64,000 nucleotides of DNA, from contig JAYZQJ010000137.1 of NCBI GenBank assembly GCA_036149055.1, positions 1 through 64,000 of the forward strand. Reading direction: 5' to 3'. A program made the translations under genes and the position numbers. The notes beneath the pieces were generated by a model. It ran no database searches. It saw only the letters and a program-made list of their open reading frames with translations, and was not told the origin of the DNA. Position 1 is the first letter of the stretch, and each line of letters opens with the position of its first letter. This document shows positions 3,673-64,000 of the stretch, one piece after another. Source of the stretch: Myxococcota bacterium. Lineage in GTDB: Bacteria > Myxococcota_A > Polyangia > Polyangiales > Sandaracinaceae.

Positions 3673-4421
3673 GCGGGCGCCTGGCCGCGCTCCTCCGCGG
3701 GGCGCCCGACGCGCTGCGACACGCGCCGGCCGAGCTGCCCGCGCTCGCCCGCTTCCTCGCCGGGGGCCCGGGCCGCGCCGCCCTCGCCGCGCGCTTCTAT
3801 CGGATCACCGCCCTCGTGGACTGCCCTCACCGGCAGTCCGAGGTGTTCGAGGTGGCCGACGCGATCCTGCGCCTCGACGTGCCCGGCCACGTCGTGGAGG
3901 CGGGGGCCTACCGCGGCGGCAGCGCCGCGAAGCTGTCCCTCGCCTGCGCCCGCGCCGGGCGGCGGCTGCGCGTGTTCGACGGCTTCGAGGGCATCCCGCC
4001 GAACGACGAGGTGATGGACGAGGCCGACGTGCTCGGCAGCCGGTCCGCGGGGCCGGCGCGCTTCGAGGCCGGGGCCTACGCGGCGAGCGAGCGCGAGCTG
4101 CGCGCCACGCTCGCGCGATTCGGCGCTCCGGCGGTGTGCGAGGTGATCGCGGGCCGCTTTGCAGACACGCTCCCCCGCGAGCGCGGCCCGGTGGCGGTGG
4201 CCTTCGTCGACGTCGACCTCGCCGCCTCCACCCGCGACTGCCTGCGCGGCATCTGGCCGCGGCTGTCCCCGGGCGGCGCGCTCTTCTCCCACGACGGGCA
4301 CCTGCCGCTCGTGCGCGCGGTGCTTGCGGACCCCGACACCTGGCGCCCCCTCGGCGGCCCGCCCGCGCGCGTGGTGGGGCTCGGCCGGCGTCGCCTCGTG
4401 CGCCTGGAGAAGGGCGAGTGA
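3669..4421 (+). CDS. TylF/MycF/NovP-family O-methyltransferase
   Basis: 'VPGHVVEAGAYRGGS', 'FDGFEGIP', 'GRFADTLP', 'FVDVDL', 'WPRLSPGG'. Confidence 0.85.
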   Translation: MSGRLAALLRGAPDALRHAPAELPALARFLAGGPGRAALAARFYRITALVDCPHRQSEVFEVADAILRLDVPGHVVEAGAYRGGSAAKLSLACARAGRRLRVFDGFEGIPPNDEVMDEADVLGSRSAGPARFEAGAYAASERELRATLARFGAPAVCEVIAGRFADTLPRERGPVAVAFVDVDLAASTRDCLRGIWPRLSPGGALFSHDGHLPLVRAVLADPDTWRPLGGPPARVVGLGRRRLVRLEKGE

Positions 4422-19030: not shown

Positions 19031-20354
19031 TTGGGGCAGGTGGGCTCTCGCAAAGGCGCCAAGCCGCACAAGGGGGCGGGGGGCCGCGGAGTGGTGCCTG
19101 GCCGGCGGGTTCCGGTCGGGGCGGGGATCGGCGGCTGGGTATTTTCTCGCAGAGGCGCAGAGTCGCAGAGGGGCAGCGGGGTGGCGGCTGGCCGGCGGGT
19201 TCCGGGCTGCGCCTGATCTGCGGGATTCGCTCGAGGGGCAGTTAGGCTCTCGCAAAGACGCAAAGCCGCCACGGGGCGGGTGGCCGCGGGGTGGTGGCTG
19301 GCCGGCGGGTTCCGGTCGGGGCGGGGATCGGCGGCTGGGTCAATTTCTCGCAGAGGCGCAGAGTCGCAGAGGGGCAGCGGGGTGGCGGCTGGCCGGCGGG
19401 TTCCGGGCTGCGCCTGATCTGCGGGATTCGCTCGAGGGGCAATTAGGCTCTCGCAAAGACGCAAAGCCGCCAAGGGGCGGGTGGCCGCGGGGTGGCGGCT
19501 GGCCGACGGGTTCCGGTCGGGGGGCGAATCGGGGGCTGGGTGAATTTCTCGCAGAGGCGCAGAGCCGCAGAGGGGCAGCGGGGTGGTGACTGGCCAGCGG
19601 GTTCCGGGCTGCGCGCGATCTGCGGGTTCGCTTGGGGAGCAATTGGGCTCGCGCAAAGGCGCAAAGGCGCCAAGGGGCGGGTGGCCGCGGGGTGGCGGCT
19701 GGCCGGCGGGTTCCGGTCGGCCCGCAGCCCCGGCCCTGTCTGCGTCTCTGCGTCTCTGCGTCTCTGCGAGAGAAGACAGGCAGCCGCCGAGCCGGCCAGC
19801 GATCCAGTCGGGGCGGCGTGGCTCCATCCCGTCGCCCCCGATCCCCTTTGCGGCTCTGCGCCTTGGCGAGAGCCCAAAAGGCAGCTGCCGAGCCGGCCCG
19901 CGATCCAGTCGGGGCGGCGTGGCTCCACCCCGCGGCCCCGATCCCCTTTGCGGCTCTGCGCCTTGGCGAGAGCCCAAAGAAGCAGCTGCCGAGCTGGCCA
20001 GCGATCCAGACGGGGCGGCGTGGCTCCACCCCGCGGCCCCCGCCCGTCTCTGAGTCTCTGCGTCTGCGAGAGAGAACAGGCAGCTGCCGAGCCGGGCGGC
20101 GACCGAGTCGGGCGGCGTGGCTCCATCCCGTCGCCCCCGATCTACTTTGCGGCTCTGCGCCTTGGCGAGAGCCCAAAAGGCAGCCGCCGAGCCGGCCCGC
20201 GATCCAGTCGCGACGGCGTGGCTCCACCCCGCGGCCCTCGCCCCTCTCTGCGTCTCTGCGTCTCTGCGAGAGAAAAAAGCAGCTGCCGAGCCGGCCCGCG
20301 ATCCAGTCGCGACGGCGTGGCTCCGTCCCGCGGCCGTGGCCCCTCTCTGCGAGA
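19031..20354. repeat. Head-to-head array of ~100-bp modules (7 forward + 7 reverse) built on octamer triplets
   Basis: Forward cores TC(T/G)CGCA(A/G)AG start at 19046, 19145, 19248, 19346, 19449, 19547 and 19649; reverse cores ending GCGAGA end at 19771, 19871, 19971, 20071, 20170, 20271 and 20354. Confidence 0.95.
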
Positions 20355-59772: not shown

Positions 59773-61065
59773 GTGGCGCGTGTCCTCGTCTTCGCCTTGT
59801 GCTTCGCCGCCGGCTGCAACTGCACGCCGGGGCGCACCGGGCGGCTGCTCCCCGATGGCGCGCTCGAGCGCCCGCCGGACAGCGGCGTCCGCCCCCGCGA
59901 CGGGGCGGTCGACATGGACGCGGACGTCGGCGCGGACGGCGCGGTGGATCCCGACGGCTCGGTCCCGCGCGACGGGGACACGCCGCTGCCCGACGCCGGG
60001 CCGCCGCGCTTCGAGCTCGACTGCGACGACGGCGTCGACCAGGACCGGGACGGCCGCACCGACTGCGAGGACGAGGACTGCGAGGGCGCGCCCTGCGACG
60101 CGAGCGGGACGCTCTTCTGCGAGGAGCGGATGTGCGGTGGCTGCACCGAGACGAGCGAGACCTCCTGCGGTGACGGCATCGACGAGGACTGCGACGGGAT
60201 GCGCGACTGCGCCGACCCCGAATGCGACGGCGTGGTCTGCGGGCTGGGCGACGTGGTCTGCGGCGGCGGCACCTGCCCGTGCCCGAGCGGGTTCGAGGAG
60301 CGCATGTGCGGAGATGGGACCGACGACGACTGCGACGGGCTCGTGGACTGCGACGACCCGGACTGCATGGGCCGGGCGTGCGGCGCGATGGGCGTGATCT
60401 GCCTGCCGGACGGGTCGTGCGGGTGCGGCGGCTCGGTCGAGCTCTGCCAGGGCATCGACGACGACTGCAGCGGCGAGGTCGACGAGGGCTGCCCGGTCGG
60501 GGTGGGCCAGTGCTGCTCGGCCCGCGCGGGGAGCTTCGGCGGCCCCCTCGGCACCTCCTGGCTCGACGCGTGCCCGACCGGCGCCGCGCTCATCGGCGTC
60601 GCCGGCCGCGAAGGGCCGCAGCTGGAGCAGCTCCAGCCCATCTGCGCGGCGCTGGTGTTCGAGCAGGACGTCACGACCTCGCCCGAGCACACGTTCCGCG
60701 TCCGCCGCGGCGCCCCGATCCTCGGCGCGCAGCACGGCGCCTCGGGCCCGACGACCTTCGACGACCGCTGCCCGGGCGACGAGGTCGCCATCGGCCTCGG
60801 CGGCGCCGCCGACGAGGACTTCGTGGACGCGATCTCGCTGCAGTGCGCGCGCGTCACCATCGGGCGCAACCGCGGCTTCGACTGGCGGATCAGCGTCACC
60901 CCCACCGGTAACACGCCGACCCGGGGCGCGGGCGGCGGCGGGAGCTCGAGCGTGTCCGCCAGCTGCGCCGCCGGCTCGGTCATCGTGGCCTTCGATGGCC
61001 GCGAGTCCACCCGGGTGAACTTCCTCGGCGCCACCTGTCAGCGACTGCAGCTCTCTTTGCGGTGA
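59773..61065 (+). CDS. Lipoprotein with Cys/Asp-rich repeats and a C-terminal beta-prism (jacalin/VMO-I-like) domain
   Basis: 'FAAGC' lipobox; repeated 'C-x-DG-x-D-x-D-(C/R)-DG-xx-DC' units; threefold 'GG..G...C..G..' C-terminal pattern. Confidence 0.75.
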   Translation: MARVLVFALCFAAGCNCTPGRTGRLLPDGALERPPDSGVRPRDGAVDMDADVGADGAVDPDGSVPRDGDTPLPDAGPPRFELDCDDGVDQDRDGRTDCEDEDCEGAPCDASGTLFCEERMCGGCTETSETSCGDGIDEDCDGMRDCADPECDGVVCGLGDVVCGGGTCPCPSGFEERMCGDGTDDDCDGLVDCDDPDCMGRACGAMGVICLPDGSCGCGGSVELCQGIDDDCSGEVDEGCPVGVGQCCSARAGSFGGPLGTSWLDACPTGAALIGVAGREGPQLEQLQPICAALVFEQDVTTSPEHTFRVRRGAPILGAQHGASGPTTFDDRCPGDEVAIGLGGAADEDFVDAISLQCARVTIGRNRGFDWRISVTPTGNTPTRGAGGGGSSSVSASCAAGSVIVAFDGRESTRVNFLGATCQRLQLSLR

Positions 61066-61127
61066 CTTCGGGGCTTCCGACTTGGTCGCGCGAAGGCTCG
61101 AAGCCGCCGGGCGGCTGATGCGGCCTG

Positions 61128-61549
61128 CTTTGGGGGGAATTTACTCTCGCAAAGGCGCAAAGCCGCAAAGAAGGTGGGGGGCCGCGGGGTGGAGGGACGC
61201 CGGGTCGTGGCGGTCGCTGGGCTCGTTGGCTGCGGCTCGTGTTGGGGGAAATTTAATCTCGCAAAGACGCAAAGGGGGGTGGGGCCGCGGGGTGGAGGGG
61301 CGCCGGGTCGTGGCGGTCGTTGGCCGGCGGTCGGAGAGTGGCGCGTCGCTCTCGGGGCTCACGCAGAGGTGCCAGAGGGGGCGTCGGGGGACGCTGTCGC
61401 GGGGCGCGGCGCGCGGGCGGCGTCTCCGCGCGGCGGTGGGGGATCCGGCCGCGAGCCTCCATCCCGTCGCCGTGCTCCTCTTGGCGGCCTGGCGGCTTTC
61501 GAGAGCCAGCTCCCTGCCTCCGTGCGCAGTTGTTTGTGTGAATCGGCGG
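61128..61549. repeat. Left composite octamer-repeat element (3 forward cores + 1 reverse core)
   Basis: TCTCGCAAAG cores at 61145 and 61257, CTCACGCAGAG at ~61358, reverse core CTCTTGGCGGCCTGGCGGCTTTCGAGA at ~61478-61504. Confidence 0.9.
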
Positions 61550-61593
61550 AGGTTGCGTGTCGCGTCACTGGGACTCGGCGGCGAGCAGCTGCG

Positions 61594-62334
61594 CTACTTG
61601 TGCCAGACACATCGCGCTACGAGGCGCCGTGGGAGCTGGCTTCTCGAGTCACCCTCGTCCGCGACGAACAGGTGGAACAGATGGTCTCCGAAAGGCCAGG
61701 TTCCACGAATCAGCACATCCGGCTGACCCGCGGGCATCGCCAGCTGAGCCAAGTGCAGCATTCCCTCCGCCTCCATGAGGTCGGCTATCTGCAACACGAG
61801 ACGGTCGTCTGCGTGAAACTCCAGGTATGGAACGCCACCGATCTTGTGGCGAGAACATGGCTCGGCGGGATGGTCGGCATCACGATCAGGAACCCAGCCG
61901 GCAGAGAAACCGAGCGAGTACTCCGGGATGACCTGAAGCCCCGTTGCCGCGTGTCTCGCCGCATCGCCGCCTAGACCACGAGAGGGCTCGTGGAGCCAGA
62001 CCTCGAGCGCCTCGCCGCCGTAGATCTTGCCGAAGTCTTCCCCGTAGATGAACTCGGGCGTCGTGTTCAGATAGACCGAAACCTCGAGAGCGTCGCCCTT
62101 CGACGAGAGTGGTACCGAGCACAGATGTGGGAGGCCCACCCGCTGTCCGCCGAGCGGAGGCCCGGCTCCGCCGAGACGGCCCTCACAGTCGGCCGTGAGG
62201 TGTCGGACGACGAAAGGGAGACACTGAAACGGATTCGGAACGAGCTCAGCAGTCGCATCGTCGAGCACAGAGTCTCGAAGCTTCGATGCGACGGCGGATC
62301 GTTGAGCCTCCAAGGCTCCATGGTCGGGCCTCAA
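61594..62334 (-). CDS. Lower-GC hypothetical protein, weak YwqG/DUF1963-like resemblance; start uncertain
   Basis: Longest ORF between the repeats; 'GRLGGAGP', 'HKIGGVPY', 'WPFGDHLFHLF'; sampled lines run about 55-65% GC. Confidence 0.6.
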   Translation of the reverse strand: MRPDHGALEAQRSAVASKLRDSVLDDATAELVPNPFQCLPFVVRHLTADCEGRLGGAGPPLGGQRVGLPHLCSVPLSSKGDALEVSVYLNTTPEFIYGEDFGKIYGGEALEVWLHEPSRGLGGDAARHAATGLQVIPEYSLGFSAGWVPDRDADHPAEPCSRHKIGGVPYLEFHADDRLVLQIADLMEAEGMLHLAQLAMPAGQPDVLIRGTWPFGDHLFHLFVADEGDSRSQLPRRLVARCVWHK

Positions 62335-62470
62335 TCTGACCTCATGATGCGTCTTCTACCAGGCTGCCGACGCGAGGCCAATCGAAGGAAGGCTCTGCCC
62401 ACGACGCAGAAGCAGGCTGTAGGGACGGGCCTGTGCGGGTCGCCGGCTGCGGCTTCTCTGGAGGGGTTGC

Positions 62471-62855
62471 TCTCGTAGAGGCGCAAAAGGAGTTGGGGCC
62501 GCGGGGTGGAGGGACGCCGGGTCGTGGCGGCCGTTGGCCGGCGGTCGGAGAGTTGGCGCGTCGCTCTCGGGGCTCACGCAGAGGCGCCAGAGGGGGCGAC
62601 GGGGGACGCTTTCGCGGGGCGCGGCGCGTGGGCGGCGTCTCCGCGCGGCGGTGGGGGACCTGGCCGCGAGCCTCCATCCCGTCGCCGTGCTCCTCTTGGC
62701 GGCTTGGCGGCTTTGCGAGAGCCAATCCCCTGTCTCCGTGCGCAATTGCTTTTGTGAACGGCGGCGAGCCTCCATCCCGTCGCCGTGCTCCTCTTTGCGG
62801 CCTGGCGGCTTCGGGAGAGCCAGCTCCCTGCCTCCGGCGCAATTGTTCCTGTGAA
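62471..62855. repeat. Right composite octamer-repeat element (2 forward + 2 reverse cores)
   Basis: 62471-62764 aligns in direct orientation with 61257-61549 (about 90% by eye); the terminal ~98-bp unit is duplicated (62666 and 62764). Confidence 0.9.
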
Positions 62856-62859
62856 GCTT

Positions 62860-63999
62860 CTATCGGAGGAGGCGGAAGATGACGCGGCGGTTCTGCGCGC
62901 GGCACTCCTCGTCGACGCTGTCGCCGTCGCCGGAGCAGTGGGGCTGGGTGTCGCCGTAGGAGCGGCTCTCGATGCGCGGGGGGGCGACGCCGCAGAGGAC
63001 GAGCTGCTCGGCGACCGCGCCGGCGCGCATGGCGCCGAGCCGGTGGTTGGCGGCCGCCGTGCCCTCTTCGTCTGCGTGGCCGATCACGCGGATGCGGGCG
63101 TCGGGGTGGGCGGCGGCGAGCTCGCACACGGCGCGCACGTCCTCGCGGAAGCGGGGCGAGACCCGGTCCGAGCCGGAGCGGAAGAGGATGGCCTGCGAGA
63201 GCAGCTCCCCCTCGTCGCGCTCGCGCACCACGGGGGCTGGCGGGGGCGGCGGGGCCTCGTCGGGGCAGCCGTCCTCGTCTTCGAAGCCGTTGCGGGTCTC
63301 CGCCTGGCGCGGGCATCGGTCGGAGGCGTCGGGGAAGCCGTCGGAGTCGTCGTCCGCGTCGATGCAGCCGTCGTCGTCCTGGAAGCCGTCGACGTCTTCG
63401 GGCTCGCCGGGGCAGCGATCGCGGTCGTCGTCGACCCCGTCGCCGTCCTCGTCGAGCGGGGCGGGCGCCGCCTCGGGCGCGCTCGCGCCGAGGTCGATGC
63501 GGGCGGTGAGGTTCACGCCGAACGTGAGCAGGTGCGCGTCGTCGCCGTTGGCGGCGTCGTCCGGCTGCACGATCTGGCCGTACCGCACGACCGGCCCCAC
63601 GCCGAACGCGGGGTGGGGGAAGAAGTCCCAGCCGACGCCGAGGTCGAAGCCGAAGCGCGAGAGGTCTCCGGTGAGCGCGAGGCCGAGGTTGGCGTCGACG
63701 AAGGGGCCGCCGACCGGGCCGTCGTCGAGCGCGAAGAAGCCGCGCGCGCCCACCGTGAAGGCGTAGAGGTTGCCGGGCTCCTGGCCGTCGACCGGGAACC
63801 ACGCGGTGGCGAAGCCGACGTTCACCGCCAGCGGCCCCAGGAGCTCGAGCCCGGCCCGGATCGCGCCGCCCCCGCCCCAGTCGAAGCGGTCGCGGTAGCT
63901 CTCGGTCAGCATCACCGACGCCGTGCCCTCGGCGTGGAAGGTGGGCGTCACCTGCGCCGCGGCCGGCGCGGAGACGAGGAGGCAGAGGGCGAAGGCGAG
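62860..63999 (-). CDS. OmpA-family outer-membrane protein with TSP3-like Ca-binding repeats (5' end beyond the window)
   Basis: 'DEDGDGVDDDRDRCP', 'EDVDGFQDDDGC', 'GHADEEG...NHRLGAMRA', 'SYGDTQP', 'NRRV'; the frame stays open to the window end. Confidence 0.92.
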   Translation of the reverse strand, partial: LAFALCLLVSAPAAAQVTPTFHAEGTASVMLTESYRDRFDWGGGGAIRAGLELLGPLAVNVGFATAWFPVDGQEPGNLYAFTVGARGFFALDDGPVGGPFVDANLGLALTGDLSRFGFDLGVGWDFFPHPAFGVGPVVRYGQIVQPDDAANGDDAHLLTFGVNLTARIDLGASAPEAAPAPLDEDGDGVDDDRDRCPGEPEDVDGFQDDDGCIDADDDSDGFPDASDRCPRQAETRNGFEDEDGCPDEAPPPPPAPVVRERDEGELLSQAILFRSGSDRVSPRFREDVRAVCELAAAHPDARIRVIGHADEEGTAAANHRLGAMRAGAVAEQLVLCGVAPPRIESRSYGDTQPHCSGDGDSVDEECRAQNRRVIFRLLR

Positions 64000-64000
64000 G

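Follow-up and report, generated by a model that had tools for sequence, protein, structure and literature searches.

What brought a single gene of foreign composition to lie between two direct copies of a structured repeat array? The window analyzed here is the whole stretch of 64,000 nucleotides, which lies on contig C137 of the source genome (G000; 9.9 Mb, 96% complete), and such a unit sits near its right-hand end. The original prediction was that the unit reflects integration of a circle of one repeat plus one gene into a resident repeat, by an integron-like or REP-mediated gene-capture system. We compared the locus with further contigs of the same genome (other C numbers), with a sister species (G001), with further genomes (other G numbers, among which G023 enters the tallies only, as a nonmatch), with extracted loci (L numbers) and, in the form of assembled contigs, with eight read runs (X1, X2, X3, X10, X11, X12, X14, and X15).

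The bracketed gene and its empty allele

The unit is enclosed by two resident genes, on the left a plus-strand gene (59773 to 61065) for a Cys/Asp-rich repeat protein that is lipoprotein-like by eye and on the right a minus-strand gene (62860 to 64000) for an OmpA-family beta-barrel protein, which runs off the window. The array begins ~70 bp past the stop codon of the left-hand gene with a first forward module, F1 (61129 to 61219, plus strand), made up of an octamer-triplet head at 61144 to 61170 and a locus-specific tail. The left copy of the direct repeat follows (61220 to 61549, plus strand) and consists of a second forward module, F2, a unique GC-rich center, and a reverse module. Next come the open reading frame (ORF) of the cargo gene (61594 to 62334, minus strand, 246 amino acids) and the right copy (62437 to 62764, plus strand), with a degenerate F2, the center, and a reverse module. 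The right copy opens with a decayed remnant of F1 (62406 to 62436, plus strand), recognized by alignment to the empty allele and from joints in the run contigs, that is intact in other strains. An extra tandem reverse module (62759 to 62855, minus strand), absent from the empty allele, ends 4 bp from the ompA stop codon.

The repeats had been described by eye as ~290 bp long, about 90% identical, and internally convergent, and this description held. Alignment of 61220 to 61549 with 62437 to 62764 gave 88.3% identity over 333 columns, with one 161-nt stretch being 96% identical, and both copies consist of one or more forward modules, the GC-rich center, and a reverse module. The only match to the 130-nt center in the 9.9-Mb genome was its partner copy (94.7%; the next best match was 46 nt), and this shared unique center counters the idea that two repeats inserted independently on either side of the gene. 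The claim of one extra module per side was correct for the window, where the forward module at 61136 to 61173 and the extra reverse module are both present, but the left-right asymmetry is strain specific and differs in X2, X3, X12, and the empty allele. The enclosed 887 bp are 63.6% GC, within the lowest 0.5% of 890-nt windows, and contain one main ORF whose GC3, 0.70, ranks in roughly the lowest 1.5% for 4617 long ORFs, in agreement with the lower GC noted originally. The strand of the ORF was corrected to minus, and its start probably lies near 62268, which would give a protein of 224 rather than 246 amino acids.

The cargo junctions lie ~15 to 20 and 35 to 45 bp from module heads, and homology upstream of the outermost head declines gradually from position −1 to about −45, which argues against a fixed cut site. 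A scheme of symmetric staggered cuts leaving a "giant target duplication" also finds no support, as the two junction distances are unequal and the boundary is gradual. We detected no stable structure in the empty array as DNA (z, −0.59) or in the right copy as RNA (z, −1.99), a search of the array against Rfam returned no family, and no promoter- or terminator-like site was found at the array. Profile scans of the window contig for IntI and the Y1 transposase gave no match, in line, for these two families, with the original observation that no integrase or transposase is nearby.

A site with a single array and no cargo had been predicted to exist in relatives, and we found one in L032, a conspecific metagenome contig and the sole one matching the left-flank pattern. 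Both flanking genes are present in L032, and its flanks are identical to those of the window at 3994/4030 and 3484/3500 positions (>99%), but the spacer is 492 bp, compared with 1794 bp in the window, and holds two forward modules, the center, and one reverse module. This array is a mosaic in which 29 columns resemble the left copy and 10 resemble the right copy, interspersed, and the empty allele is not a clean single-crossover product of the window's two copies. The array alleles (window positions 61066 to 61549 versus L032) differ by ~10% between these conspecifics and the flanking genes by <1%; the array repeats change far faster than their surroundings. In G001, the ortholog of the left-hand gene has no array after it and the two flanking genes are not neighbors, so that the sister species provides no outgroup for the window site.

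Contigs carrying the cargo were present in five of the eight runs (X1, X2, X3, X11, and X12), from five studies, with X1 possibly being the source. In X2, X3, and X12, the right end of the cargo runs straight into a first forward module that is intact (62405 to 61129), and the duplication in these strains is thus ~420 bp, whereas the right copy of the window carries the decayed F1. Assembly artifact was rejected as the source of the filled allele because there is 12% divergence between the two copies and the cargo turns up in contigs from five studies. Joints from 61170 to 62690/62695 in run contigs were also discarded, as short matches from other arrays. In X10, X14, and X15, both flanks and one center were covered but not the cargo, and in X3 the cargo contig had a depth of 24, compared with 90 to 120 for the flanks; as there was no bridging contig among those listed, this coverage is a hint only, and the empty site is represented by L032. 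Divergence of the cargo among its carriers (14 of ~920 nt in X3) is about that of the flanks, so that the capture looks old and single, and present-day polymorphism may be mainly loss of the cargo. Taken together, these results identify the unit as a real presence/absence allele, in which a gene of foreign composition lies between two array copies and of which the empty form keeps one.

The strain differences listed in the cargo ORF were silent in 6 of 11 cases, compared with 25% expected (p = 0.036), lending weak support to selection on the frame. A word-index search with the cargo protein recovered its own cluster alone (7 members), and an exhaustive search yielded 98 family proteins including itself, ~200 amino acids long and mostly 27 to 40% identical over the matched parts. 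Single-sequence fold prediction gave a pLDDT of 36; a model made from 76 family members reached 86, and its sole significant fold match was Bacillus subtilis YwqG (PDB 1PV5; E, 3.7e-4; TM, 0.44). An HKxGGxP motif, a conserved C-terminal GGxP, and an invariant glutamine, Q190, resemble the GGxP motif and conserved Q described for the TYPP domain (YwqG/DUF1963) in PMC4275035. However, the first motif reads GGxxP, identity is 12%, Pfam DUF1963 matched none of the 76 family members, and a profile search gave an E value of 0.28. On the strength of the model, the cargo is predicted to have the YwqG/TYPP fold.

The cargo is present in one copy in the source genome. Its family was detected in 2 of 60 relatives searched and in 1 of 250 additional genomes; G001 gave no match. 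One of three loci carrying cargo homologs (L095) follows an Rhs gene and the other two (L097 and L178) do not. From such sequence comparisons the cargo is a candidate orphan immunity protein, a role for which the chances seem about evenly balanced; PMC4275035 proposes protein-protein interaction for the TYPP domain, not immunity. L095 also contains (502 to 1624) a perfect 58-bp inverted duplication of part of the 3′ end of the cargo homolog, ~1 kb away.

Octamer arrays and other bracketed loci in the genome

The head of each module is a triplet of the octamer CGC-A/C-A/G-AG-n, and the modules are ~100 bp long with locus-specific tails. A matrix scan found 469 modules at 142 loci in the genome and none in a shuffled genome, and a profile scan of the same genome found 472 modules at 140 loci. 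Arrays make up ~0.7% of the genome; 73 of 92 internal arrays lie at most 200 bp from a called stop codon. Intact arrays usually consist of a forward run followed by a reverse run, as in the cargo-free array at 19037 to 20280 of the window (seven forward and then six reverse modules, with different tails), which had correctly been recognized as a relative. Tails were more alike within arrays (0.74) than between arrays (0.63; n = 72), implying that arrays grow in place. Segments of at least 150 bp at ≥85% identity were common to 17 pairs of array loci, including pairs whose members sit on separate contigs and not at contig ends, so that arrays can also be copied between sites. A strict module pattern matched 145 times in the source genome, 10 times in G001, and never in 39 other relatives; a slightly shorter pattern was present in 18 of 301 genomes of a phylum sample. 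We found no short target duplication or mobilizing transposase near arrays. The Y1 transposase profile PF01797 had nine matches in the genome, four of them on array contigs, with the nearest module 11 kb away, and five on module-free contigs. By eye, one whole contig (C15:1-3122) consists of an IS21-like transposase/ATPase pair, and an identical 127 nt of octamer module stands at each end; here an insertion sequence has probably entered an array.

The expectation that other arrays would enclose cargo was borne out at one further locus. The cassette at C258:4736-6522 (L065) has the same design, with 324-bp direct repeats that are 93% identical and have a unique center, around an orphan gene for a protein of 273 to 289 amino acids. 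Its flanking genes are adjacent in G001, with no array or cargo, as are those of a weaker locus on C182. Among 37 direct repeats in the genome (≥100 bp, ≥84% identity, 0.4 to 6 kb apart), 14 are noncoding, and the two longest of these are those on C137 and C258. As a general rule, however, the expectation failed: clear cassettes number only 2 among the 142 array loci, and low-GC DNA was no more frequent beside arrays than after other genes (17/227 versus 451/6064, p = 0.9, with crude gene calls and GC as the only measure). Neither C258 cargo nor window cargo had a match among viral contigs.

C100 was rejected as a cassette, because the gene that its arrays flank is a resident one, which G001 also has; the two sides are only 71% alike, and the locus indicates that two-sided insertion does happen. 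Inspection by eye of 32 regions in G001, G134, G221, and G303 revealed mostly resident genes between generic repeats and no clear further cassette, the sole possible one (L058) being situated at contig ends. Several other arrangements were seen. An orphan gene lies between reverse modules at C182:54248-55430, and orphan genes occupy the loop between forward and reverse runs at C29:27569-28782, C22:44110-45689, and C205:1539-5467. At C259:5495-7555 and C28:722-1874, long direct repeats other than octamer arrays enclose low-GC DNA. Two octamer arrays enclose type I restriction-modification M and S genes, identified by eye, at L059 (G221:C297:1-4300).

GxxExxY nuclease genes within repeat arms

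The original prediction called for a search for a co-occurring recombinase or nuclease family, and one was found. At C79:64431-64909 (L071), a 128-amino-acid gene lies exactly between forward and reverse heads, with the arms pointing inward, and its product is a GxxExxY protein (TIGR04256/PF13366, PDDEXK_3) of the PD-(D/E)XK type. A GxxExxY gene likewise lies inside inverted octamer arms in G134 (L046). We took the best 80 GxxExxY relatives from the genome collection, 77 of which had enough flank, and found the octamer motif pointing inward on both sides at 38 of these 77 loci and in 0 of 123 distant control windows. Against this link, G001 has octamer repeats (35 pattern matches) but no GxxExxY match. 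The source genome has a second GxxExxY gene (C30:19315-19674), with different, purine-rich arms.

GxxExxY genes in several other phyla are bracketed by direct repeats of nonperiodic sequence, at 11 of 73 loci compared with 0 of 400 cross-locus controls; the 11 include one tandem dimer and two loci with scaffold gaps. In all four loci tested, the repeat was mostly confined to its own locus (2/3, 2/2, 8/8, and 4/5 copies local). L161:1264-6750 has eight locus-specific repeat copies in 5.5 kb between MNT/HepT, GxxExxY, addiction-module/ParE, and PIN genes; it sits inside a sugar-nucleotide gene cluster, and one repeat copy also precedes the resident gmd gene. Similar interspersed, octamer-containing repeats occur with PIN and PemK genes at L146:85-4000. 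Near-identical GxxExxY cassettes occupy several sites of one genome (L110, L111, and L137), where an IS630-like element apparently carries them in its end. L137 was rejected as a bracketed cassette, being a tandem dimer, as was L149 as a bracketed octamer cassette, since its repeat is not an octamer unit.

The arrangement of the arms suggests that the nuclease cuts these repeats. The activity of PDDEXK_3 is entered as "Unknown" in a table of PMC3424549, and our search of openly available articles found no description of GxxExxY-linked repeats and no published activity.

Origin of the duplicated array and likeness to known systems

The reading that we prefer, to which we give an even chance, is a single capture through a break at the array, after which homologous recombination interconverts the alleles. 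A break at an array module would be made, probably by the GxxExxY nuclease, the gene for which lies within arms of this motif. Repair of the break would leave a copy of the ~330- to 420-bp array on either side of the foreign DNA that entered. Through ordinary homologous recombination, the empty allele would arise by loop-out between the direct repeats and the filled allele by re-entry or by exchange through the flanks. We infer the cut as the cause of capture, the order of events, and any circular intermediate. The predicted integration of a repeat-plus-gene circle keeps a part in this scheme: because the center exists nowhere else in the genome, a circle could return only to the window locus, and so circle integration could account for how the cassette spreads, though not for how it first arose. 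Arrays are likely to be occasional entry points for new genes that act without an integrase.

A bolder reading, which we hold only tentatively, is that GxxExxY genes and octamer arrays form an integrase-free gene-capture system in many phyla, in which successive events build cassette arrays and filled and empty alleles coexist. Cuts at module heads would admit foreign genes while the local array duplicates, and toxin-antitoxin, immunity, and nuclease genes would accumulate, separated by locus-specific repeats. It is the toxin-antitoxin genes separated in this way elsewhere that keep the reading alive.

Capture by nuclease also has a rival in which the duplicated array is a passive scar and the nuclease plays no part: a donor allele made up of flank gene, array, and foreign gene would have undergone homologous recombination on one side and illegitimate recombination on the other, so that two array alleles came to be stacked around the gene, the repeats serving only as homology that evolves fast. 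This is possible, though it convinces us less than a break at the array. It would account for the lack of sharp boundaries and of hot-spot enrichment beside arrays, and for a divergence between the two copies that is about that of conspecific array alleles; the mosaic empty allele (29 versus 10 columns) and the low-GC DNA bracketed by repeats without octamers on C259 and C28 are consistent with it as well. It does not lead one to expect that the two longest noncoding direct repeats of the genome would both be complete arrays whose junctions lie no more than ~45 bp from a module head, or that the same layout would surround GxxExxY genes in several phyla.

The integron-like reading, in which site-specific recombination takes place at the structured repeats and cassette arrays are built by excision and integration of gene-plus-repeat circles, was not supported, and we now consider it improbable. 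Filled and empty alleles fit the arithmetic of circles, and L161 and L146 are multigene arrays separated by locus-specific repeats, but one repeat copy of L161 also precedes the resident gmd gene. In the 96% complete genome, the IntI profile TIGR02249 had four matches, none over the cutoff and none on the window contig. The core boxes of attC sites are RYYYAAC and GTTRRRY, and neither copy of the repeat contained a match on either strand. There is no fixed crossover point or sharp boundary, the locus-specific centers leave a circle without a target elsewhere, and the cargo occurs at one site only in the genome and was not found in viral contigs. Moreover, PD-(D/E)XK nucleases are hydrolases, not recombinases.

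Equally hard to sustain is a composite MITE-like origin, in which a mobile array was copied to the other side of a preexisting gene, as in IMU- or NFM2-flanked integrons, and a subsequent deletion gave the empty allele: the array-flanked resident gene of C100 and the long array segments common to distant loci speak for it, but the C100 sides are 71% alike, compared with 88 to 96% at the window locus, the cargo family had no match in G001 and occurs in 2 of 60 relatives searched, and neither a short target duplication nor a mobilizing transposase was found, the nearest Y1 gene on an array contig being 11 kb off.

With a filled/empty pair, a second locus, and a candidate enzyme in one genome, the part that the repeat plays in gene gain is directly testable. 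The GxxExxY nucleases (PF13366) are widespread and have no known role, and no paper on their repeats was found in the literature searched. If the nuclease drives capture, there would be an integrase-independent route to cassette arrays, and small nucleases with sequence specificity would have gained a new family. If the nuclease is not the driver, the fast-evolving repeat would still act as a switch for gene gain and loss, as in Neisseria.

Among known systems, integrons resemble the locus in having single orphan genes between similar structured repeats, with multigene toxin-antitoxin arrays such as L161 and L146 elsewhere, and differ from it in having IntI, attC core boxes, and a precise crossover; the repeats here are 330 to 420 bp and locus specific. 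The MITE-flanked integrons IMU (288 bp) and NFM2-MITE (439 bp) are closer in form, with direct copies of an inverted-repeat element of a few hundred base pairs around the cargo, and for NFM2 excision by homologous recombination was suggested (PMC3184786). Those copies, unlike the ones at the window locus, are identical and have ends of the transposon type, and NFM2 also has outer 5-bp duplications (PMC3184786); unlike the site of a composite transposon or MITE unit, the empty site here keeps one array copy. Minimal mobile elements share whole-gene presence or absence between conserved flanking genes and homologous exchange, although their definition in PMC3898611 does not require a direct repeat around the gene. 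REP, REPIN, and BIME elements with their RAYT proteins also combine a short motif, inverted doublets and tandem arrays between genes, and a partner enzyme gene within inverted copies (PMC3184786). The 469 modules at 142 loci are likewise numerous and extragenic and form inverted as well as tandem arrays, but no Y1 transposase lies near any array, the partner gene is GxxExxY, and the ~100-bp modules have locus-specific tails.

In function, by analogy, the locus is most like the NIME/dRS3 (NTS) arrays and SsnA of Neisseria. Those genomes have hundreds of intergenic mosaic repeat arrays (PMC3898611), and SsnA is a small single-domain nuclease, encoded by a gene flanked by its own repeat, that cuts single strands beside that repeat (PMC11893778). 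Furthermore, pilC1 lies between arrays in one Neisseria strain, and a shared repeat region in another is the proposed site of its integration or deletion (PMC3898611). The locus is nevertheless not a member of that system, since the repeat is an octamer triplet here and ATTCCC-N8-GGGAAT there, and the flanked nuclease has a PD-(D/E)XK fold (TIGR04256/PF13366) here and a GIY-YIG fold there. In addition, a whole array with a unique center is duplicated at the window locus, and cutting of the repeat by the linked nuclease is a prediction.
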